57,518 bases of DNA from a virus (lineage: Duplodnaviria; Heunggongvirae; Uroviricota; Caudoviricetes). Where the stretch lies: the IMG/VR virus record IMGVR_UViG_2861048470_000006; one strand, 5' to 3'. The notes under the pieces were generated by a model. That model was given only the letters and a program-made list of their open reading frames with translations. It did not search any database and had not been told where the DNA came from. Below, one piece after another: positions 2,077 to 52,759 of this stretch (position 1 is the first letter of the stretch; each line of letters opens with the position of its first letter). Both the position numbers and the translations under genes were made by a program.

Positions 2077-4041
2077 TCACCCGACCCGCACAAATAATCC
2101 TATATACGCTTCCTTTCCGTTGGTGGTATAAAGACCATCTCCCCCCAGAGACTGATACACTCCGGGAAATGCCGATGTATTCGTTCTGCCAATGACAAAC
2201 GTTGCCTCCCCTTTCATTGTGCCTGCTCCTGTCACGCCTCCCACTACTATTTCCACCGGCGCAAGTGCTTTTCCCGGGCATGGTTGTCCACGACTCAGGC
2301 GCATTAAAACTCCACCTTCCGCTACTCCCAAAAAAGCTGCCATAACCACACTGCCGATATCCGGTTTCGGCGAACTGATACTTCTTAAAAATTCATCCTT
2401 TGATAATTTGCTCTGAGCCTCATCCATTACCACTTTGACCGCTTTTGGGGTTGCCGCCAGTGACTCGGAAGTGCTGTTTGTCGCACTACTGAGTTGTACT
2501 ATCCCTTTCTGTGCTGTCGTTGCATTCTGTGCGGTGTATTTCCCGTTAGCCAGGTCATACGCGGCCTTAACTGCTTTTGGCGTTGCCGCCAGTGACTCGG
2601 AAGTACTGTTTGTCGCACTGCTGAGTTGTACTATCCCCTTTTTCGTCGTGCTCGCATCCTCAAGCGCCACGGCGTATGCAATATCCTCTGCCCGTTTTGC
2701 TGCTGTCTCGGCGCGCGTTGCTGCGGATTCTGCCGTACTCTTGCTCTGTGCTGCCGCCGTCGCACTACCAGCTGCCTCGGTCGCTTTCGTGGATGCCGTC
2801 GTGGCACTTCCCTTCGCTGCTGACGCCTGTTTAGTCGCCTCATCTTTTGAAGCAGACGCAGATGATGCCGATGACGCCGCCGAACTGGCGGACGATGCGG
2901 CAGCCGTTTTTGAGGATTCTGCGCTGGTTTCCGACGCTTTCGCGTTCGTTTCGGATGTCTTCGCTGCGGAAGCAGACCTCGCTGCTGCGCTGGCCTGTTC
3001 AGCGGCTTCGCCAGCCTTCGTTGTGGCTGTTGAAGCAGACGATGCGGCACTTTCTGCCGATTTTCCGGCGGCGGTGGCACTGGCTGAGGCCTGCCCGGCA
3101 CTTGTTGACGCGGCACTGGCAGACGACGCAGCCGCTGTTTTTGAGCCTGCCGCAGCTGAGGCGCTCTGTCCCGCTGCCGTCTCAGAAGACTTAGCGTTCG
3201 TCTCGGACGTTTTTGCCGCCTTCGCGGAATTTCCTGCCGCCGTTGCCGAGGAAGCGGCACTACTGGCGCTCGAGGATGCGTTCGTTTCTGATGATTTCGC
3301 TGCCTCTTTTGAGGCCGCCGCATCCCGGGCTGAGGTGGCAGCTTCTGAGGCTTTCGTAGTCGCGGTGGATGCAGAAGTGGCTGCTGATTGTTGTGACGCT
3401 GCGGCATTCGTTTCTGACGTTTTCGCCGCACCGGCACTGGTGGCCGCCGCGCTTTTTGAGGACTCTGCAGCGGCAGCACTTTTTGATGCCTCAGAGGCTT
3501 TTGCTGATGCCGTTCCCGCGCTGGAAAAAGCCTCCTGAGCCGACGTCGCGGCCTGTCCGGCTGACGTGCTGGCGGCACGAGCTGAGCCTGCAGCATCAGT
3601 CGCATGGGTTGCCGCCTCACGGGCTGATGTGCTGGCATCGCTGGCTGACTTCTTCGCGGCTGCCGTGTTCTGTGCCACCGCGGACGCGTTACGCGCCACC
3701 TCTTCCACCATCAGTTCAAAACGGCGCAGTGCCTCAGGACGGGCATCATCCTCCGTCATGGCACCGAGAAAATCATTCAGCGTACCGGGTCGGGAATCTT
3801 CATACACGGTGATGGTCCCGGCATGTGACGGCGGGAATCCCTCCACCAACAGAATAACGCTGTACTGCCCGTACTCAACGTCCATGCTGTAACGCCCGGC
3901 TTCATCCGGATTTTCTGAGGCCAGCGTGTTCACCACCACCGTGGTGCTGTTACGTTTTGCTTTCAGCTGGATTGTGCAGTTCTGTACCGGTTTTCCTGTG
4001 CCGTCTTTCAGTACACCTGAAATCTTTACTGCCATATTCAC
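2077..4041 (-). CDS. stf: side tail fibre protein (Stf); lambda-like N-terminus (MAVKISGVLKDG...), long Ala/Ser/Thr-rich low-complexity shaft; true start probably the ATG 2 codons in (4035)
   Basis: 654-aa ORF; N-terminal match to lambda Stf as recalled; position between lom and tfa. Confidence 0.85.
   Translation of the reverse strand: MNMAVKISGVLKDGTGKPVQNCTIQLKAKRNSTTVVVNTLASENPDEAGRYSMDVEYGQYSVILLVEGFPPSHAGTITVYEDSRPGTLNDFLGAMTEDDARPEALRRFELMVEEVARNASAVAQNTAAAKKSASDASTSAREAATHATDAAGSARAASTSAGQAATSAQEAFSSAGTASAKASEASKSAAAAESSKSAAATSAGAAKTSETNAAASQQSAATSASTATTKASEAATSARDAAASKEAAKSSETNASSSASSAASSATAAGNSAKAAKTSETNAKSSETAAGQSASAAAGSKTAAASSASAASTSAGQASASATAAGKSAESAASSASTATTKAGEAAEQASAAARSASAAKTSETNAKASETSAESSKTAAASSASSAASSASSASASKDEATKQASAAKGSATTASTKATEAAGSATAAAQSKSTAESAATRAETAAKRAEDIAYAVALEDASTTKKGIVQLSSATNSTSESLAATPKAVKAAYDLANGKYTAQNATTAQKGIVQLSSATNSTSESLAATPKAVKVVMDEAQSKLSKDEFLRSISSPKPDIGSVVMAAFLGVAEGGVLMRLSRGQPCPGKALAPVEIVVGGVTGAGTMKGEATFVIGRTNTSAFPGVYQSLGGDGLYTTNGKEAYIGLFVRVG
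2441..2640 (-). repeat. two ~70-bp near-identical direct repeats inside stf, encoding the duplicated peptide KGIVQLSSATNSTSESLAATPKAVK
   Basis: gcttttgg(g/c)gttgccgccagtgactcggaagt(g/a)ctgtttgtcgcact(a/g)ctgagttgtactatccc occurs twice about 120 bp apart; coordinates approximate. Confidence 0.6.
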
Positions 4042-4099
4042 CCCACAAAAAAGCCCTCCTGAACCGGCGGGCTGTCATAACACTGTGTTACCTGGCTAA

Positions 4100-4699
4100 T
4101 CAGAATTTATAACCGACACCCACAATGAAACCGTCAGTGCGCCAGTCACCACTGCCGGAGCCTTCATAAGCAATATCAATGGCCACGGATTCGGTCGGGT
4201 TAAACTGCACGCCAGCCCCCCACGCCAGAGACGTGTTGCTGTGGCGACCGTCATCACTTCCGGTCAGCACATCATGCGTTTTCCCCGTATTGTCGGTCAC
4301 CTGCAGATAATCCCCGGAGAAAGTCGACACACGGCTGTAAGCCACACCCGCCATCGCATACGCGCTGAACCATTCATTCACGCGCACAGACGGTCCCGCC
4401 ATCACGCTGAACCAGCGGTTACGCACGGAATCCTCATGCCAGCGGGTATCGCTGTAATGCGTTTTTTGCTCATCTTCAGCGTTGGCATAACTGAATGACG
4501 TAATCAGCCCCAGCGTGTCCGTAAACTCATAACGGTATTTCACGTTAATCCCGTTCAGATTATCGCTGCCGGGAGCGTTCGTACGGGCATGAAGATACCC
4601 TGCGCTCAGTGTGGCCTGCTGCTCAGACGCCCATGCAGGCGCACCGGATACGGCCAGACAGATGGCTGCGGACAAAATGGCTGCATAAACTTTACGCAT
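4100..4699 (-). CDS. lom: Lom/Ail-family outer membrane protein
   Basis: 199-aa ORF with signal peptide and beta-barrel C-terminus ending ...VGYKF; lambda gene order J-lom-stf. Confidence 0.9.
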   Translation of the reverse strand: MRKVYAAILSAAICLAVSGAPAWASEQQATLSAGYLHARTNAPGSDNLNGINVKYRYEFTDTLGLITSFSYANAEDEQKTHYSDTRWHEDSVRNRWFSVMAGPSVRVNEWFSAYAMAGVAYSRVSTFSGDYLQVTDNTGKTHDVLTGSDDGRHSNTSLAWGAGVQFNPTESVAIDIAYEGSGSGDWRTDGFIVGVGYKF

Positions 4700-4766
4700 A
4701 ATTACCTCTCGCTTTTCTGCAATAAAAAAGGCGCCATTTCTGGCGCCCGTATTGGGGTTATAAAAT

Positions 4767-7700
4767 TCAGCTGATACTGATGCCTGCGGTGGCTTTCTTC
4801 ATCACCACAACCAGCAAATCGCTGATACTTGCTGTGGGATACCAGTCATTTACCAACCATGCTGACACCGAAAACTCCAGTGTCATGTGACCGTGACCGG
4901 CAGGCATATCAATAACACCACTGTAAATCAGCGTATTATCCAGCGCGGTACGGTTATAAATTTCAGCACCGTTTTTCCGTACTATCAGACGGCATGAGGA
5001 GTAAATATCAGTATGCTCTTTCTCATGTTTAGCGCCGCTGAATGCCACCGCCGGAATAACAATCTGCCGGTCAAACGGCTGATCGTCATAAACCCTGACG
5101 GTAATGGTTCCTGATGGCCACCGCTCCGGTGCACGGGAGTCCCGGGGGAAAGCTTTGCCCACTGTTTTAACGAGATCGCCTTCAATCTGGTTCGCGGACA
5201 GTTTTCCCAGAACCCGACAGTTCTCGTTAATCGTGACGTTGTTGAGCGTCCCGGAGTTCGCATTCACGTTACCGCTGATATCGGCATTTTTCGCCGTCAG
5301 CCGCCCGTCCGGTGTCAGGGAAAATGCCGGAGGATTACCGCCGCTGGTAATGGTCGGAGCCGTCAGGCGTTTCAGGAACACGTCGTTCATGAATATCTGA
5401 TCGCCCTGACCAACAAACATTGGTCTTGTGTTGCCATTAGACGGATCAATAAACGCGATACGGTTAGCGGCAACCAGGAACTGGCTCAGCTTGCCTTCTT
5501 CCGTGTCCTCCATGCTGAGGCCAATACCCGCGACATAATGTTTGCCGTCTTTGGTCTGCTCAATTTTGACAGCCCACATGGCATTCCACTTATCGTTGGC
5601 GTCCTTCCACTCTTTCGAAAACTCCTCCAGTCTGCTGGCGTTATCCTCCGTCAGCTCGACTTTTTCCAGCAGCTCCTTGCCGAGATGGGATTCGGTTATC
5701 TTGCCTTTGAAAAAATCCAGGTAACCTTCCGCATCATCGCTCGCCCGACCGACGGCCTCCACGAATGCCGATTTGCCAACGGTGTTCACACTGCGGATAT
5801 AAAAGTAATAATCATGGCCCGGTTTGATATTGATACTGGCGGCTATCCAGTACAGCCCCGTGCCAAGGTAGCGGGCTGTGGTTTCAACCTGCCTGATATC
5901 GGTAATCCGCGTTTCCGAGAACCAGAACTCAAACTGCACCGTCGGGTCATATACAGCCAGTTTCGGGACCGCCGTTATCTGAAAATAGCCCGGTGTCAGC
6001 TCAATCCGCGACGGCGCTGCCGGTGCGGCAATCCGGAACGATACCGACGCCGGATCGCCCTGCTGCCCCCACGCATTTACTGCCCGGACTGTCAGCCTGT
6101 AGTTCCCCAGCGCCAGTTGTGTGAAGCGGTAAGTGGTTTCCGTCGTCCGGGCCGTGCTGACCAGCCGCTCACTGCCGTCATCCGCTGCCACGGTCAGGCG
6201 AAGCATAAAGCTCACCCCCTTCACCACCTTCGGCGTGTCCCAGCGCGCCAGCACCTGATATTCCCCGCTGTCTGCGGTGACTTCGGCAGTCAGGTGCTGC
6301 ACCGCGGGCGGCGTGACACCATTCACCGTGCCGCTCTGGTCGCCGTCAAAGTGCGCCCCGTTATCCACGATGGCTTCTTTTTCCGGTACATGCTGCACGG
6401 CGGTGATGGCATACGTGCCGTCGTCGTTCTCACGGATACTCACGCAGCGGAACAGGCGCTGGCGCAGCGTCGGCAGCTTCAGCCCCCACACGCTGTATTC
6501 AGCAACGCCGTCAGGAACACGGCTCACTTTCACCTTCACGCCGTCGGTGACGGACTGAACCTCCACGCTGACCGGATTACCACTTCCGTCAACCAGGCTT
6601 ATCAGCGTGGTACCGGAGGATGGCAGCGTGATTTCACGGTCGAGCGTCAGCGTCCGGGTCTGGCTGTTCACCGCCAGCACGCGACCACCGGTGCTGATAC
6701 CGGCATAGTCATCATCGCAGATTTCAATGACATCGCCCGGTACATGGCGAAGCCCTTCAGCACCCACGCTGAAATCCACGGTCTGCGTCTCCAGCAGTTC
6801 CGTTTTAATCAGCCACAGCCCGGCGCGGTGTGCCTGCCCCCGGCTGGTACAGCCAAAGGCATCCATCTTCGTGACGTTACGACCGTAACGGGCAATGGCC
6901 TGCGTATCTTCAACAAGCTCTGTCGCCGTCTCCCAGCCGTTATCCGGGTCAATCCAGTTCACCTCAACGGCATTATGGCGGTCTTTCAGGGCGCTGAAAC
7001 TGTAGCGGAACGGCGCGCCATCATCCGGCATCACCACATTACTGCGGTTATAGGCCCACACCTTATCCGACGGTCGGTCCTGCACGAACGTCAGCGTCTG
7101 CCCGTTCCATACCGGCATACAGCGCATCGCCGAGCAGAAATCACTGAGCACATCCCACGCTTTGCGCTGTGTGGTCAGGTACGCATTACAGGTGATGCGC
7201 GGCTCCGTGCCGCCAAAGCCGTCCGGCACTGACTGGTCGCAGTACTGGCCGATGACATACAGCGCCCATTTGTCCACATCCGCCGCACCAAGACGTTTCC
7301 CCATGCCGTAGCGTGGATGGGTCAGCATATCCCACAGACACCAGGCCATGTTATTGCTGTATGCTGGCTTAAACGTTCCGTCCCAGATACCGCTGTATTG
7401 CCGAGTCTGCGGGTTATAGTTCGACGGCACCTGCAGAATACGCCCGCGCAGATGATAATTACGGCTCACCTGCTGGCTGCCGAACTGCTCCGAATCCACC
7501 TGTACGCCGACCAGTGCCGTGTTCGGGTAGCACTGTTTCACATCGATGATTTCGGTGTATGACGACCAGAGCGTTTTGTTCTGCAGCTGGTCTGTGGTGC
7601 TGTCCGGCGTCATTCTGCGCATCCGGATATTAAACGGGCGCGGCGGCAGGTTATCCACCACCACCGAGGCCAGATACTGCGAGGTGGTTTTGCCCTTAAT

Positions 7701-30040: not shown

Positions 30041-30115
<75 letters not shown>

Positions 30116-30118
30116 ATA

Positions 30119-30194
<76 letters not shown>

Positions 30195-35719: not shown

Positions 35720-35875
35720 TTACTCCTCAGGTTCGTAAGCTGTGAAGACAGCGACCTCCGTCTGGCCGGTTCGGATTCGTACCTCGCAGAGGTCTTTCCT
35801 CGTTACCAGTGCCGTCACTATGACGGTTAAACAGATGACGATCAGGGCGATTAACATCGCCTTTTGCTGCTTCAT
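35720..35875 (-). CDS. hokD: Hok-family type I toxin
   Basis: 51-aa product MKQQKAMLIALIVICLTVIVTALVTRKDLCEVRIRTGQTEVAVFTAYEPEE matches Hok/RelF as recalled; track ORF extends upstream in frame. Confidence 0.9.
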   Translation of the reverse strand: MKQQKAMLIALIVICLTVIVTALVTRKDLCEVRIRTGQTEVAVFTAYEPEE

Positions 35876-36086
35876 AGCCTGCTTCTCCTTGCCTTTCGGC
35901 ACGTAAGAGGCTAACCTAGATTTGCCGTTCATAGATTGAGCCTCAGATTAATGTTAAGCGTCTTGCAGGACGCGTAATGTTAACTGGGGCTTTTCTCTAT
36001 CTGCCTTTGGTGTTCATGCCTGAGACAGATAGCCTCAAGCACCCGCAGCCATTCTACTTAACTCCCGTTACCTCGCCAATATAAAA

Positions 36087-36176
36087 TCAATCAGAAAGGC
36101 GATCCATAAGAACAACAGCAAGACAATAAATTGCCATTACAGCTGCAATAGCCAGCGCACATTTGAGAACCAGCAC
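36087..36176 (-). CDS. candidate 29-aa hydrophobic peptide (VLVLKCALAIAAVMAIYCLAVVLMDRLSD), GTG start
   Basis: hand-found; AGGAGG 5 nt upstream of GTG; different frame from the Cys-rich 72-aa track ORF. Confidence 0.3.
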   Translation of the reverse strand: MLVLKCALAIAAVMAIYCLAVVLMDRLSD

Positions 36177-36381
36177 GACAACCTCCTGTATTGGACGTAC
36201 ACCAGTCCTGATAAATATGAGGCTGTCTCATCATTGATGAGATACAACTATTGGGTATAGTTTCTGTGATTTTGTTCTGTAGAAATGGAACACAACAACC
36301 AGTCACCACCAGTACTTCTTTAAATACGCCAAGTCCGACGCAAGCTAACCTTCTAGTCCGCTTTGAGCGAGAAGCGGAAGT

Positions 36382-36648
36382 ATGAAACTTGTTCTCACCA
36401 CCGATGAAGCATTACAAACAATGCAGTTAGTTTATCAACGGGCAGGATCAGGGCGTACTCTCAAGCGGTTTAAGATTGATAACCTCAGGTACATTCATCT
36501 TGCCACGTTTCATATAGCGTATTTGCGACAGAGTTCATGTGAAGAAACACCGACTACGAGGATGATATTCATGTTGTATTGTTCGGGAAATCACTTCTTC
36601 ATATGGAACCCTCATCACACTTACAAAACCATTATTAACATAGCTTAA
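36382..36648 (+). CDS. hypothetical protein
   Basis: 88-aa track ORF, no recognisable motif. Confidence 0.25.
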   Translation: MKLVLTTDEALQTMQLVYQRAGSGRTLKRFKIDNLRYIHLATFHIAYLRQSSCEETPTTRMIFMLYCSGNHFFIWNPHHTYKTIINIA

Positions 36649-36888
36649 GTGTTAATCAAAATTGAGCCATTCACATTACATTAGGTAAGGTATCTTACTA
36701 AAAATATTGTAATGTTTTGTTTTTAAAGATAAAGATTTCAGGTTGAAAACCAAAAATTTTTAGTTAAAAATATTTATGGTGTATGTAAAAAATGATAAGG
36801 TAGTGATAAGACATAAGTTTGTAAAACACATGTTAAATTTCAATGCTGATGAAAAAGCTTAGCGTTAATCAAAACAGGAGCAAGAAGA

Positions 36889-37719
36889 TTGAAAGTTATT
36901 AGCTTAATCAATATGAAAGGTGGCGTTGGTAAGTCAACATTGGCTACCAATATTGCTAATCATCTTTCAGATAAACTTGGGCAAAAAATATTATTAATAG
37001 ATATCGACCCACAATTTAACGCAACGCAATGTGTAATGGATACAAGCAAATATGTTGCACATATGAAAAGCGGAGGCGATAGCATATGTGATATTTTTTA
37101 TAGTTCAAAAATTCGACTATCTACAATGACTGGTCCTTTAGTTAACACACCTAAAGAATTAGCCGATATAACACCAATTCAATTAAATGATAATTTTCAC
37201 ATTGTTCCCGGAAGCCTTGGGCTATATAAAATTGAAATGAAACCAGGAGAAGGGATAGAAAACAAGCTTAGACGCTTTCTTAAAATCCATGAAAATGACT
37301 ATGATTATGTCATAATTGATACCCCACCAACCCCATCAGTTTGGATGTCCAGCGCATTAATTGCATCTGATTATTACCTCATTCCAGCCAAACCCGATCC
37401 TCTTTCGATCACTGGTATCGATCTATTAGATAGCATTATAAATGAGAAGAGAGAAAATTTCGATCTTAAGATTGAATGTGCGGGCATAGTTTTTAATATG
37501 GTTGAAGGTAATAGTAATTTATATGAGGAAAGTCTTCGTTACTTCAATAATCAAAAACGTTGGCGTAATAAGATCTTTAAATCATATTTGAGCAAACGTA
37601 CTGAGTTGGCAAGAAATCAAACAAGAGGCTTATTTATTAACAATTTAACGGATGAGGATATGAAGTTTTCGCTGTCTAAAATTACTGACGAACTTCTCTC
37701 TAGAGTAGGTGACTTATGA
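36889..37719 (+). CDS. ParA/MinD/Soj-family P-loop ATPase
   Basis: 276-aa ORF, TTG start with AGGAG RBS; deviant Walker A KGGVGKST, DIDPQ and Walker B-like VIIDTPP motifs; very AT-rich. Confidence 0.8.
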   Translation: MKVISLINMKGGVGKSTLATNIANHLSDKLGQKILLIDIDPQFNATQCVMDTSKYVAHMKSGGDSICDIFYSSKIRLSTMTGPLVNTPKELADITPIQLNDNFHIVPGSLGLYKIEMKPGEGIENKLRRFLKIHENDYDYVIIDTPPTPSVWMSSALIASDYYLIPAKPDPLSITGIDLLDSIINEKRENFDLKIECAGIVFNMVEGNSNLYEESLRYFNNQKRWRNKIFKSYLSKRTELARNQTRGLFINNLTDEDMKFSLSKITDELLSRVGDL

Positions 37720-38222
37720 CTGACAAAAAAAATAACTCAAAAGAAATTAAGCAACTGTTAAACTTTTTAGAGGAGTTTTCCTTTATTTCAAAAAAATTAT
37801 CAAGAATCAACTTTATTGAATTACTTCAAGATAGTTATACTGATAATTTAGAAGTTAACGAAAGAAATTCAAAGTCCAAAAAAAATGATATTAAAGGTTT
37901 CCTTGTTGGGTATCTTCCGAGGATTTTATTAGACAAAGATCTCTTCCAAAAAAATAAAGATATAGATGATTTTGCACGCATGTTAGGTATCGAAATCAGC
38001 AGGCCTGAAAAAAGATCTAGAGAGGAAATGATCGGCATAATCGTGTGTGACGTTCACGAGAAAAACTCATCCGATTTAGGTAAGGCTTATAATATTATCA
38101 ATTCAATGTCAAATAACCCTCTAGTTTTGAGTAGAATAAAAGAGAGGAAGAACCTTTCTAGCGCTCAAAATGAGATATATGACTGGAATGAAGTTATAAA
38201 AGATATATTCAATAAGGACTAA
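37716..38222 (+). CDS. hypothetical protein, second gene of ParA-like operon
   Basis: 168-aa ORF overlapping ParA stop by 4 nt (ATGA); Lys/Asn-rich; no motif recognised. Confidence 0.5.
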   Translation: MTDKKNNSKEIKQLLNFLEEFSFISKKLSRINFIELLQDSYTDNLEVNERNSKSKKNDIKGFLVGYLPRILLDKDLFQKNKDIDDFARMLGIEISRPEKRSREEMIGIIVCDVHEKNSSDLGKAYNIINSMSNNPLVLSRIKERKNLSSAQNEIYDWNEVIKDIFNKD

Positions 38223-38224
38223 CA

Positions 38225-38920
38225 ATGTCGAGAGAAGTAAACAGCGATTTCACTGAGTTAGTTACTTATTTCTCTGAATATAAATTAAAAAATGTTTTCG
38301 AGAATATTAACTCAAGAGGGAAAATAAGCATGATACATAAGAGATATTATTCTTTTATGTGCCTTGTTTACTGTTTGTATCATTTCTCCAAGGAGAAAAT
38401 AGACGCCAACTCATTGGAGCGATTGCAAGAAGCTTCATCTGACCTTGGTACAGCTATGTTTATGGTTATAAATGGTGCATACAAACCAGCAAATCTAATG
38501 ATGCGAAGTTATATTGAAAATTCTTTAAAATCAATCGGTTGCTTACTAGATCCTTCAATACTTGAAGAAAAATCATTGTTTAAGGTAATTGAACAAACTG
38601 GGGAACATCCTGTCTTCAAAAAAAATCCTCTACTACATGAAACTTTAAAAGCTGAATACTCTTCGTTATGCAGTCACGTACATACAGCTACTGTAAAAGA
38701 AATGGCTCACATAAAAGCTTTAAATGTTTTTCCCGAAATAGACTTGGTTAAAATAGATAATATTTCGAAGGTGATTGATAAGGTGGTTAAGACTATGATA
38801 TCAACTATCATAAGAATTTTTCCTGATGTTTTCTTTTCCTTTGCACCTGAGTATCGAGAAAAAATCCTCCTTAGCTTAACCTCTGCACAACGAGCCTCAC
38901 TTCATTCCTTAAGTGATTAA
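38225..38920 (+). CDS. hypothetical protein, third gene of ParA-like operon
   Basis: 231-aa ORF 2 nt after previous stop; no motif recognised. Confidence 0.5.
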   Translation: MSREVNSDFTELVTYFSEYKLKNVFENINSRGKISMIHKRYYSFMCLVYCLYHFSKEKIDANSLERLQEASSDLGTAMFMVINGAYKPANLMMRSYIENSLKSIGCLLDPSILEEKSLFKVIEQTGEHPVFKKNPLLHETLKAEYSSLCSHVHTATVKEMAHIKALNVFPEIDLVKIDNISKVIDKVVKTMISTIIRIFPDVFFSFAPEYREKILLSLTSAQRASLHSLSD

Positions 38921-38933
38921 CTAACAAGTATGA

Positions 38934-38966
38934 CATAAAAACTATCCTATTGTGATAGTTTTTATG
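38934..38966 (+). terminator. 13-bp-stem hairpin directly after the three-gene operon (putative terminator)
   Basis: CATAAAAACTATC-ctattgt-GATAGTTTTTATG; coordinates anchored to stop at 38918-38920. Confidence 0.4.
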
Positions 38967-39116
38967 TTCATTAAGATGACTATATCAGGAATTATTGCCG
39001 AATTTTAATTTTCATATTGATTTTACTATCTCTCACCAACTCTTGTAAGTATCCTTCCGCCACAAGCGGACCATGTGCATTTAAATATCTGACCTAACGT
39101 GCCGTAACGCCGCAAT

Positions 39117-39202: not shown

Positions 39203-40495
39203 CTATGGTTTTTTATTAGAATCTTCGCCACTAAATAAATTATAATAAATTGATTTTATTAGATATCTGTCAGAATCTATATGGTCAGCACGAGTAGCAT
39301 GCTCTAATGTTTCAAATGCTAGGGTTTGTGCGGCTTCAGCAAAAATTCCAGGCCAACCCTTACTCAGCATCGACAGTCCTTTAAGGATCCTTATCTGAAT
39401 TTCCCTCATACTGGCACCATCGCGCGCAACAGGTGAGAAAAAGTCTTCAAGTAGATCGTTATTCTGAAGTGGTGCAACATGTACAGAAGGATATTTCACT
39501 TCTATTTCATCAGATTTATTCTGCGCGTAAGCGGAAAGTATACGTACACCTCTGCCAATGACATCAATGGCGGTTCCAGGATCGTTCACTGCGGGGGAAA
39601 GGGCTCGGCAGGCTATTTCGGCCATGACGCTAAGACAAAATCGGGGGTCCTGAGCAAATGAACGTACATCCGAGACAATAATCGTCTCAAGTAAATCGGT
39701 GCTGATTGATGACTCCTGGCCCTGACTCAGGTACAAAACTGGCGTGGACGGATGTATGAAACTGCCCGGCTGCGCCACGAGGTATACATGACGGGGATCA
39801 TTGGTCAGCAGCTTGCTGAGTTTCACCATATCAACATATTCAACATAGCCAATCTTTTTCGGATAAACTGCAACCGTTCCTTTCGGCTGTTCATTGTTCT
39901 CAAGCCATGGATATCCGCCGAGACAGGGATTTCTTGCTCTCGCAATAAATGTTTCGATGGCCGCCTGTTCTACTTTTGCCGTTGTCTCACCAACCCTCCC
40001 CAGAGAGGTCAAATGCTGTATCCAGCGAAGCAATGTGATGAGGATTAAGGCAATGACAACCAGTGTTACAATGAATAAAATGACTCTCCCCCTTTCTCCA
40101 TAAGCTCCCATATTGAGGGCAATAATCCCTACCAGACTGAAGAGAAAAGAACCGATGAAGGTGGCCAGTACATTTTGTGTGGTGACGTCTTCAACAACTA
40201 AACGAGTAGCTCTGGGAGTCACATTAGTAGTGGCTGAACCGTAGGCTGTGACCATGATGCTCAGCGAAAATGTGGTCACTGCCAGCATACTCGATGCCAG
40301 TATGTTCAGAATGTTATCGACTGCTTCCGCACCAACCTTCACGGAAACCGACTCAGGTATCATTGATTTAAAAAGAATTGATAAAAGGGCCGTTATTATT
40401 GCGACAATTGCGAATAACGTTGCCCTGAACCATAGTTTTTTAAATGTCTGCTTCAGCATCCATTTCCAGCGTGAAATCATTCTGCATTCCCTCAT
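39203..40495 (-). CDS. DUF2254-like multi-TM membrane protein
   Basis: 430-aa ORF with N-terminal TM helices and large soluble C-terminal domain; family from recollection. Confidence 0.5.
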   Translation of the reverse strand: MRECRMISRWKWMLKQTFKKLWFRATLFAIVAIITALLSILFKSMIPESVSVKVGAEAVDNILNILASSMLAVTTFSLSIMVTAYGSATTNVTPRATRLVVEDVTTQNVLATFIGSFLFSLVGIIALNMGAYGERGRVILFIVTLVVIALILITLLRWIQHLTSLGRVGETTAKVEQAAIETFIARARNPCLGGYPWLENNEQPKGTVAVYPKKIGYVEYVDMVKLSKLLTNDPRHVYLVAQPGSFIHPSTPVLYLSQGQESSISTDLLETIIVSDVRSFAQDPRFCLSVMAEIACRALSPAVNDPGTAIDVIGRGVRILSAYAQNKSDEIEVKYPSVHVAPLQNNDLLEDFFSPVARDGASMREIQIRILKGLSMLSKGWPGIFAEAAQTLAFETLEHATRADHIDSDRYLIKSIYYNLFSGEDSNKKP

Positions 40496-40543
40496 ATTGC
40501 AGCCGGGATAAATAAATGCCGCCTCTGTGGCGGCATGTTGCTG

Positions 40544-42547
40544 TTAACGAACCAGATGCAGGAAGTGCAGGTGTTTTTCGTACTGGTCCAGTATGTCATT
40601 AATCAGCTGTTCCTGATTCCAGCCCATTACATCATAATTTTGGCCGCCCTCTTTGAGATAGACTTCAGCGCGATAATATCGATGTTGTTCACTCTGCTGC
40701 TCATCATTATCCAGCGCAGCGAGCGCGAAGGTCGGTGAGTTATACCCGCGAAGCCTCACTTCATATATATAATTCAGCTCGTTGCCCAAATCGACTTCAA
40801 GGCGAATACGATCCTCGGCGGCGTCACTGATGTGGCTTATCGTTCCCTGCTTGTTAAGTTCCTCCTGAACCAGCGTCATGGCGGGTTGGATAATGTCGTC
40901 CATAAAACGTTTCACAAGAGAGCGCTTCGGCAAATACGCGATATTGCGTAACCTTCTCTGCCAGGGAATTGGGTTACGTGCAGCCGTAGGAGCAATAGTC
41001 GCCATGCTAAGGCTTTCACGCTTGGTCAAATCCCGACGCAGGGCTTTTAACAGTCCGTATATGGATATTAATAAGATAACTGAGAAGGGCAATGCACTCG
41101 CTATCGTTACGGTTTGCAACGCACTCAGCCCCCCTGCGATCAGCAGGGCAATAGCAACAACGCCCATGAGCAATGCCCAGAAAATTCGCTGCCAGACGGG
41201 CGTGTTTGCCACCCCACCTGATGCCAGAGTATCCACAACCATTGCCCCCGAATCAGCAGACGTTACAAAGAAGACGATGACCATCGCCATTGCAATGAAT
41301 GACAGCACGGAAGAGAACGGGAAATGCTCCAGGAAATTAAACAGGGCAAGCGCAACATCCTGCTGAACGGTATTGGCGAGGTCAGTGGCGCCCTGGTTCA
41401 TGATGAGATAGATGGCGCTGTTTCCAAACACCGTCATCCACATGAGCGTAAAGCCGGCGGGAACAAACAACACGCCAGTCACGAACTCACGAATTGTCCT
41501 GCCGCGGGAAACGCGTGCAATGAACATACCTACAAACGGCGACCATGAAAGCCACCATCCCCAGTATAATAATGTCCAGCCCCCCAGCCAGTTGCTCGAC
41601 TTGGGTTCATACGCGTAAAGGTTGAACGTTTTACTCACCAGTTCCGACAGATAACCACCCGTATTTTCCACAAATGACTTCAGCAGAAGCACAGTGGGAC
41701 CCAGGCACAAGACCAGCGCCAGGAGCAACACCGCCAGGCCCAGATTAAGCTCAGACAGGATGCGTATTCCCTTGTCCAGGCCGGACACCACCGAAATCGT
41801 CGCTAACCCCGTGATGACCACGATCAAAATGACCTGTACCGTTTCATTGATGGGCACGCCGAAAAGATGGTTCAAACCGGCATTCACCTGCAATACACCG
41901 TAACCCAGCGATGTTGCAACGCCAAAGACAGTGCCTATCACGGCGAAGATATCAACCGCGTGGCCTATAGGCCCGTAAATGCGATCGCCGATAATGGGAT
42001 AGAGCGCAGAACGCAGCGTTAAAGGCAGACCGTGACGGTAACTGAAAAAGGCCAGAATCAGCGCCACGATGGCATAAATTGCCCATGCGTGCAGACCCCA
42101 GTGGAAGAACGTCAGGCGCATGGCTTCCTTCGCTGCCGCAACGGTCTCTGGAGTGCCGACAGGTGGCGAAAGATAATGCATCACAGGTTCGGCAACGCCA
42201 AAGAACATCAGGCCGATCCCCATCCCTGCCGAAAAAAGCATCGCGAACCAGGAGTGGTAGCTGAAATCAGGCTGCGCATGGTCTGGGCCCAGCTTTATAT
42301 CACCGTAACGTGAGAGTCCAAGGAACGTGACGCTCAGTAAAATCAGGGCCACAGCAAGTATGTAGAACCAGCTGGCATTCGTGAAGATTTGTTGCTGAAG
42401 TAGTTTAAAATTTTTGTCGGCGACATCCGGGAATACGGCGGCAAAGGCGACAAGAAGGAAAATTAGCAAAGCAGATGTAAAGAATACCGCTTTGTTAACC
42501 TGGCTTGTAGACTTCTTTGGGGTTGTATCATTTTCACTCATAATCAT
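40544..42547 (-). CDS. BCCT-family transporter (BetT/BetU-like choline/betaine transporter)
   Basis: 667-aa ORF; conserved BCCT segments (GDIKLGP, WTLLYWGWWLSWSPFVGMFIARVSRGRTIREF) parallel E. coli BetT as recalled. Confidence 0.85.
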   Translation of the reverse strand: MIMSENDTTPKKSTSQVNKAVFFTSALLIFLLVAFAAVFPDVADKNFKLLQQQIFTNASWFYILAVALILLSVTFLGLSRYGDIKLGPDHAQPDFSYHSWFAMLFSAGMGIGLMFFGVAEPVMHYLSPPVGTPETVAAAKEAMRLTFFHWGLHAWAIYAIVALILAFFSYRHGLPLTLRSALYPIIGDRIYGPIGHAVDIFAVIGTVFGVATSLGYGVLQVNAGLNHLFGVPINETVQVILIVVITGLATISVVSGLDKGIRILSELNLGLAVLLLALVLCLGPTVLLLKSFVENTGGYLSELVSKTFNLYAYEPKSSNWLGGWTLLYWGWWLSWSPFVGMFIARVSRGRTIREFVTGVLFVPAGFTLMWMTVFGNSAIYLIMNQGATDLANTVQQDVALALFNFLEHFPFSSVLSFIAMAMVIVFFVTSADSGAMVVDTLASGGVANTPVWQRIFWALLMGVVAIALLIAGGLSALQTVTIASALPFSVILLISIYGLLKALRRDLTKRESLSMATIAPTAARNPIPWQRRLRNIAYLPKRSLVKRFMDDIIQPAMTLVQEELNKQGTISHISDAAEDRIRLEVDLGNELNYIYEVRLRGYNSPTFALAALDNDEQQSEQHRYYRAEVYLKEGGQNYDVMGWNQEQLINDILDQYEKHLHFLHLVR

Positions 42548-52706: not shown

Positions 52707-52759
52707 TTTCTGGTGACGTTTGGCGGTATCAGTTTTACTCCGTGACTGCTCTGCCGCCC
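52707..52759 (+). ncRNA. dicF: DicF small RNA (ftsZ-targeting sRNA)
   Basis: 53-nt TTTCTGGTGACGTTTGGCGGTATCAGTTTTACTCCGTGACTGCTCTGCCGCCC matches DicF as recalled, followed by TTTTT; immediately upstream of dicB. Confidence 0.8.

Follow-up and report, generated by a model that had tools for sequence, protein, structure and literature searches.

A three-gene prophage cassette of Escherichia coli headed by a ParA-type ATPase is probably a divergent relative of the RemAIN defence system

A Qin-like lambdoid prophage of Escherichia coli carries an AT-rich cassette of three genes, the first of which encodes a ParA-type ATPase. We studied it in a stretch of 57,518 nucleotides, the IMG/VR virus record IMGVR_UViG_2861048470_000006; this whole stretch is called the window below, and the three open reading frames are ORF1, ORF2 and ORF3 (Table 1). 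Our analysis indicates that the cassette, a self-contained unit, probably belongs to the RemAIN family of prophage-borne, tripartite systems of defence and competition, as a divergent member. A homology for each of the three proteins, that of ORF3 a probable one, together with the same order of genes and a similar type of carrier, leads us to regard the cassette as a distant RemAIN homologue.

The prophage Gifsy-1 of Salmonella Typhimurium 14028 contains the genes STM14_3218-3220, one for a ParA-like ATPase and two for hypothetical proteins. This locus, first mapped in PMC9879122, is needed for the SOS-dependent activation of RtcR, a sensor of RNA ends bearing 2',3'-cyclic phosphates. RemAIN is presented in PMC13043305 as the ATPase RemA, the immunity protein RemI and the HEPN anticodon nuclease RemN. 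Citing Sargen and Helaine 2024, that article describes an anti-phage and prophage-competition system, and it mentions anticodon nuclease activity and protection from several phages. RemN is counted among the HEPN tRNA nucleases in PMC12409363 and is described in PMC12626290 as blocking the lytic cycle of the co-resident prophage ST64B.

RemAIN sequences were recovered with the published STM14_3218-3220 primers, through an exact 32-nucleotide match in seven IMG/VR contigs. At locus L016, six of the seven published primers match exactly at the expected positions. The lengths of the genes for RemA (840 bp) and RemN (663 bp) are those published, an open reading frame for a RemI of 130 amino acids lies between them, and RemA ends in VSENG, in agreement with the reverse primer. 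A second candidate for the Gifsy-1 locus, L002, was rejected; it resembles Cronobacter phage phiES15. In L016 (3716-4111), remA begins 59 nucleotides after a gene for a CI-like helix-turn-helix (HTH) repressor on the same strand, a placement that recalls rexAB downstream of cI in phage lambda.

The three proteins of the cassette can be linked to these sequences one by one. ORF1 aligns with RemA at 34% identity over 207 amino acids (E 1e-35). The score of 116 bits is higher than that for any ParA of known structure; the best of these, the delta protein of pSM19035 (2oze), gives 79 bits. The profile of the ORF2 family finds RemI with 26 bits in hmmsearch (E 3e-10, single target) and with a probability of 82-83% in hhalign (E about 1e-5, over 52-90 columns); the match is centred on ILLDKDL(F/L)xxNxD(I/V)xDF and an RSR motif. 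A profile of 128 ORF3 family sequences finds RemN with 15 bits (hmmsearch, E 6e-7). The hhalign probability for this pair is a moderate 60% when a single RemN sequence is used and 87% when the profile is compared with an alignment of four RemN sequences (E 3.8e-6, 162 columns). When about 180 proteins of mixed families were searched, RemI matched only the ORF2 family and RemN only the ORF3 family.

The likeness extends to organization. In both systems three co-directional, tightly coupled genes, which in L016 too overlap or abut, encode in this order a ParA-like ATPase, a small protein and a third protein that is of HEPN type in RemAIN and putatively so in the cassette, and both are carried as variable cargo of lambdoid prophages. 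RemN and ORF3 also have in common an arginine, a glutamate, a tyrosine and a distal histidine, and these residues, with synteny, support homology between the two families. The differences are just as clear. The ATPases of RemAIN and the cassette are 32-34% identical and the small proteins about 24%, while BLASTP detects no relationship between the nucleases. RemN has the canonical motif RSMIEH (Rx4H), whereas the aligned position in ORF3 reads RSYIEN. RemI lacks a region of roughly 50 amino acids at the N-terminus of ORF2, which is the longer protein by 38 amino acids; it also lacks the motif FLEE(F/L)SW and keeps only RSR of the motif RPEKRSRxE. Finally, RemAIN stands beside a prophage repressor gene and is co-directional with it, whereas the cassette stands beside hokD, antisense to the early operon.

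An earlier, sequence-only reading of this DNA had taken the three genes for a candidate undescribed accessory or defence system headed by a ParA/MinD-like ATPase. The nature of the head gene was read correctly: ORF1 has the deviant Walker A motif KGGVGKST, the motifs DIDPQ and IIDTPP, and Pfam matches to AAA_31 (1.4e-37) and CbiA/ParA (1.4e-18). The defence-type character also stands. What does not stand is the word undescribed, for RemA, RemI and RemN are homologous and occur in the same order. All three genes thus match a system that already has a name, but at profile level only and with real differences from RemAIN. That no named system had been recognized is understandable, because PADLOC-DB 2023 contains no model either for the window-type cassette or for RemAIN. 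The profile searches that this reading had proposed for the three proteins recognized ORF1 as a ParA and gave nothing for ORF2 or ORF3 in Pfam, NCBIfam or PADLOC.

By its motifs and profile matches, ORF1 is a bona fide ATPase of the ParA/Soj type. It also matches the ParA-like group phrog_164 (5.7e-60), and the NCBIfam model ParA_partition at 1.4e-25 with 90 bits, against a cut-off of 180. The ATPase motifs are kept in all of the ATPases linked to such triads. ORF2 falls in a PHROG of unknown function, and its profile found nothing among PDB sequences. From its N-terminus it consists of a helical region (about residues 1-45), a linker that is disordered, and a helical core resembling RemI; the family invariants are the RPEKRSRxE loop and the N-terminal FLEE(F/L)SW. 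That the basic loop stimulates the ParA ATPase is speculation on our part.

ORF3 is the least familiar of the three. Its PHROG is likewise a group of unknown function, the search of PDB sequences with its profile returned nothing, and Foldseek gave no significant match in the PDB. Some of its 128 family members do match Pfam models, 14 of them DUF5677 and 3 HEPN, which is independent sequence support for a putative nuclease. Only five residues are invariant in all 128 sequences (G84, R94, E98, Y145 and H153), with E69, S72, Y86, K87, L148, C149 and P170 nearly so. RemN retains the equivalents of R94, E98, Y145 and H153. The canonical HEPN motif Rx4-6H is absent from ORF3, which reads R94-SYIE-N99, and the only invariant histidine, H153, lies 59 residues downstream. 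Where might the active site be? In the anticodon nuclease PrrC, the catalytic triad consists of R320, a stabilizer of the transition state, E324, the general base, and H356, a candidate general acid (PMC1484252). Since the R-x3-E and Y-x3-C-x3-H that the ORF3 family keeps and shares with RemN match this triad in composition, we infer by analogy that R94, E98 and H153 form the active site.

How might such a system work? On the model of RemAIN, ORF3 would be a latent endoribonuclease of HEPN fold, which most likely cuts the anticodon loops of tRNA and produces ends with 2',3'-cyclic phosphates. ORF2 would bind ORF3 and keep it silent, and the ATP cycle of ORF1 would couple a cue from phage infection or prophage induction to the release or activation of the nuclease. 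Cleavage of tRNA would then arrest translation and abort the lytic growth of the invader or of a competing co-resident prophage. The roles and the phenotype assumed here are those reported in the sources above for the Salmonella homologue only. By analogy with it we infer that the cassette in the window shares RemAIN activity and that the cue is sensed by ORF1.

Several observations weigh against this identification. ORF3 and RemN do not match significantly in BLASTP (E 3.3), and the link between them is drawn from profile matches of moderate probability (60-87%) together with synteny. The match of the ORF3 family consensus to DUF5677 (8.3e-6, 26.4 bits) stays just under the gathering cut-off of 27.1. 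At position 99 the family has asparagine in 96 sequences, threonine in 20, serine in 5 and other residues in the rest; histidine occurs in none of the 128, so that catalysis by ORF3 is putative. In two of the loci with related triads, L007 (plasmid p11184, described below) and L008, the ATPase gene is frameshifted or truncated, so that the ATPase may be dispensable or these copies may be decaying.

Because the canonical histidine is missing, the most serious rival is a RemAIN relative in which the third protein has ceased to cleave tRNA, having turned to another substrate or chemistry or become a non-catalytic binder of RNA or nucleotides. RemN does have histidine at position 99, which the ORF3 family never has; that family is far larger than the RemN branch that we found and lies nearer to DUF5677, itself of unknown function; and ORF2 has its extra N-terminal region and an invariant RPEKRSRxE that is incomplete in RemI. 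Yet R94, E98, Y145 and H153 are absolutely conserved, in RemN as well, and an R-x3-E with a distal histidine is the experimentally supported triad of PrrC (PMC1484252). The immunity-like partner, moreover, is conserved along with ORF3, which implies a toxic activity. We consider this rival rather improbable. A bolder version of our own reading, unlikely though somewhat less so, is that the cassette belongs to a large sister clade of RemAIN, of about 390 clusters at 50% identity and ranging from enterobacteria to high-GC alphaproteobacteria. Its nuclease would have exchanged the canonical HEPN histidine for a PrrC-like R-E-H site and would perhaps have another substrate or chemistry. The N-terminal module gained by ORF2 and the RPEKRSRxE loop could act as an ATPase stimulator in the style of ParB or ParG, and the ATPase would serve as a nucleoid-bound surveillance platform that reads invading or replicating DNA.

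Two further explanations dispense with phage defence as the chief function. The cassette might be a three-component toxin-antitoxin module that chiefly stabilizes its mobile element by addiction. It joins a toxin-like nuclease to an immunity-like partner, occupies a slot that adjoins hok/sok and holds relBE in the Qin prophage of K-12, and has a relative on the small plasmid p11184. Against this, the Salmonella homologue is described as protecting from several phages (PMC13043305) and as blocking a co-resident prophage (PMC12626290), and the sequence gives no hint of a labile antitoxin; we judge addiction as the chief role very unlikely. The two roles are compatible, and one need not exclude the other. 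Least probable of all, in our estimate, is a ParA-based partition or positioning module in which ORF2 would be an adaptor or centromere binder and ORF3 an accessory, the whole stabilizing the prophage or a plasmid form of it. ORF1 is certainly of the right type: it matches ParA_partition, if far under the cut-off, its closest solved relatives are partition ATPases, and a related triad directly follows rep on the 5.8-kb Plesiomonas plasmid p11184. It resembles the ATPases of type Ib ParA-ParG/omega systems in being a small ParA with a deviant Walker A motif and no N-terminal HTH, the closest solved structure being pSM19035 delta. The rest of a type Ib system is lacking, however. Scans of the cassette proteins with Pfam, NCBIfam and PADLOC found no ParB HTH and no ParG/omega ribbon-helix-helix partner that could bind a centromere, and Tandem Repeats Finder (TRF) detected no centromere repeats near the operon, both as the sequence-only reading had maintained; the third gene, in addition, is nuclease-like. 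The sole repeat in the leader has two copies and is not conserved. We therefore regard a defence-type cassette as much more likely than a partition module.

Among other known systems, PrrC and RloC offer a parallel, that of a latent anti-phage tRNA nuclease under the control of an NTPase. The R-x3-E and distal histidine of PrrC have counterparts in R94, E98 and H153 of ORF3; this is a match of pattern only, and we claim no similarity of sequence. In PrrC the nuclease carries an ABC-type NTPase domain at its N-terminus, and a linked type I restriction-modification enzyme keeps the protein silent. In the cassette, by contrast, the ATPase is separate and of ParA type, a dedicated small protein is the putative silencer, and ORF3 is a single domain of 231 amino acids; there are no hsd genes near the cassette. 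In PARIS, the ATPase AriA is a sensor that releases the tRNA-cleaving Toprim effector AriB upon detection of a phage (PMC12409363). An ATPase sensor that holds a tRNA-cleaving effector is also what we propose for the cassette, but PARIS is not homologous to it: its two genes encode an ABC ATPase and a Toprim nuclease that depends on metal, and it lacks an immunity protein. HEPN-MNT (HepT-MntA) and solo HEPN (HepS) systems are unlike the cassette in having the canonical Rx4-6H and no ParA ATPase. Their HEPN proteins are neutralized in other ways, HepT through AMPylation by MntA and HepS through its conformation.

Relatives of the cassette are numerous. A word-indexed search gave 18 clusters for ORF3 and 12 for ORF2, and an exhaustive profile search gave about 390 ORF3 representatives at 50% identity, nearly all of 230-240 amino acids. 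Every locus that we inspected has a gene for an ORF2 relative of 153-180 amino acids and one for a ParA-type ATPase ahead of the ORF3 relative. The order ATPase, small protein, nuclease, with genes overlapping or abutting, recurs at nine other loci, down to 22-31% identity in ORF3. These triads occur in Enterobacter J49, in a Cronobacter-like lambdoid prophage, where a distant triad lies between lambda-P and RusA/Q, in several metagenomic contigs, in a high-GC alphaproteobacterial metagenome-assembled genome, and on the Plesiomonas plasmid p11184. The divergence of the three proteins is concerted, least rapid in the ATPase and most rapid in ORF3, with identities to ORF1/ORF2/ORF3 of the window of 89/80/72, 58/49/42, 49/42/34 and 43/28/27%. 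Genes near distant triads encode a type II methyltransferase, a viperin-like radical SAM enzyme, a resolvase and toxin-antitoxin pairs, as would fit mobile or defence islands. Megablast and tblastn against a phage collection gave no match, a profile scan of genome contigs with the ORF3 alignment gave no relatives, and we found no mention of the RefSeq accessions of the cassette proteins in the literature.

Two of these loci deserve separate description. L007 is the mobilizable 5.8-kb plasmid p11184 of Plesiomonas shigelloides. Its triad (3664-5734; 36% identity in ORF3) comes directly after the rep gene, relBE is also aboard, and in the sequence as deposited a frameshift divides parA in two. 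In L009 (2935-5549), genes for a type II (Dam-like) methyltransferase, a protein with a ParB_N domain and a protein of 285 amino acids lie directly upstream of the triad and co-directional with it; they may belong to a separate system next to the triad or extend the triad itself.

Table 1. Features of the cassette (coordinates refer to the window)
Feature	Coordinates	Strand	Description
AT-rich leader	36649-36888	+	240 bp, presumed to bear the promoter; ribosome-binding site (RBS) AGGAG 7 nt before the TTG start
ORF1	36889-37719	+	276 aa, TTG start; RemA-like ATPase of ParA/Soj type
ORF2	37716-38222	+	168 aa; RemI-like putative immunity or adaptor protein
ORF3	38225-38920	+	231 aa; RemN-like putative nuclease, putative HEPN fold
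Stem-loop	38933-38967		perfect 14-bp stem, 13 nt after the ORF3 stop

The anatomy of the cassette is largely as the sequence-only reading had it. Both our calls of open reading frames and the RefSeq annotation place the three co-directional genes at the same coordinates, with TTG as the start of ORF1; a 4-nucleotide ATGA overlap joins ORF1 to ORF2 and a 2-nucleotide gap separates ORF2 from ORF3. The start context of ORF1, ATTGAAAGT, is kept in the Enterobacter orthologue. The leader, claimed to be very AT-rich, has a GC content of 0.258. For ORF1, ORF2 and ORF3 the values are 0.341, 0.300 and 0.330 (30-34%), with 0.27-0.32 at third codon positions. These are indeed far below the 0.514 (51%) of the window, the 0.57 of the prophage structural genes and the 0.54 of the adjacent DUF968 gene. 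The commonest codons are AAA, AAT, GAT and ATT, much as had been noticed. The hairpin that follows ORF3 is real as well, with a stem of 14 bp, not 13: its arms (38933-38946 and 38954-38967) are 14 nucleotides each and 100% complementary, and the loop has 7. It folds with -18.7 kcal/mol (z = -3.6 against shuffled sequences) and was scored as terminator-like on the minus strand in a consensus scan. As the cassette converges on a DUF2254 gene (from 39203), the hairpin lies between convergent genes; it is probably a bidirectional terminator.

The leader itself offers little that can be read as a regulatory signal. A promoter scan gave several sigma-70-like matches, which were not enriched over shuffled sequence, and TRF detected no tandem repeats. 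Compared with the Enterobacter J49 orthologue, conservation is limited to the surroundings of the RBS and the start codon. A 14-nucleotide direct repeat, AGYGTTAATCAAAA, at 36648-36661 and 36861-36874, flanks the leader, with the second copy abutting the RBS. It is probably a chance or strain-specific feature, because it is not kept in the orthologous locus of Enterobacter J49; with two copies only and no such conservation, it was rejected as an operator or centromere.

Of 5426 complete E. coli genomes, 133 (about 2.5%) contain the 2.7-kb stretch with the cassette at an identity of at least 99%; it is annotated there as a 'ParA family protein' and two hypothetical proteins. The Salmonella-type remAIN occurs in 68 of the 5426 at about 69% nucleotide identity, in genomes distinct from the 133, and is annotated in the same way, as a ParA family protein and two hypotheticals. 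In ETEC-2265 the cassette lies within a Qin-like lambdoid prophage integrated beside rspB and ynfA. One flank has hokD, DUF968, RusA and Q; the other has the DUF2254 gene, a BCCT transporter, insertion sequence (IS) elements and the replication and immunity genes. The cassette and the early operon of the prophage are on opposite strands, the cassette being antisense to the early transcript. Homology to K-12 Qin ends at position 35889 of the window, just past hokD/sok, and at this breakpoint K-12 has relE-relB-ydfV-flxA; the cassette therefore fills a variable cargo slot. Such a dispensable cargo position had been proposed from the sequence alone, as had horizontal acquisition, with which the foreign composition agrees. 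This view holds: the prophage acquired the cassette horizontally, from a low-GC donor, as dispensable cargo.

Other features of the window lie around this slot. At 35720-36044 on the minus strand, immediately beside the cassette, are hokD, a toxin gene, and the antitoxin RNA sok in full length (Rfam, 110 bits). The next 600 bp or so, between sok and the leader (36045-36648), have an intermediate GC content of 0.42 and include an open reading frame of 88 amino acids (36382-36648, plus strand) with no RefSeq annotation and no counterpart in K-12 Qin. On the far side, the genes for the DUF2254 membrane protein and the BCCT-family (BetT-like) transporter (39203-42547, minus strand) are more cargo of non-phage type, and copies of IS100 and IS3 come after them in ETEC-2265. 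The small RNA DicF is encoded at 52708-52759 on the plus strand (Rfam, 76.7 bits); K-12 Qin has DicF too, and its presence confirms the Qin-like identity of the prophage. Genes for tRNA-Gly(UCC) and tRNA-Thr(UGU) are found at 30041-30194 on the minus strand, with the Q/methyltransferase region on one side and the lysis genes on the other. In a prophage that has a putative tRNA nuclease of its own, these could replace cleaved tRNAs or counter the tRNA-targeting defences of other elements.

If the cassette is a divergent RemAIN, as we think probable, it bears on a question wider than this one prophage. Few defence systems are known to arbitrate between competing co-resident prophages, and RemAIN is one of them. 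To our knowledge it has been known from a single Salmonella example. The window-type family is overlooked both by current annotation and by PADLOC-DB 2023. A divergent version in E. coli would provide a tractable model and a natural comparison on three points: which histidine serves the active site, that of Rx4H or the distal invariant one; what the ATPase senses; and whether activation in E. coli, like that in Salmonella, feeds into RNA repair through RtcR/RtcB. Should the sister-clade version of our reading prove true, the family would represent a mechanistically distinct trigger for an abortive nuclease.

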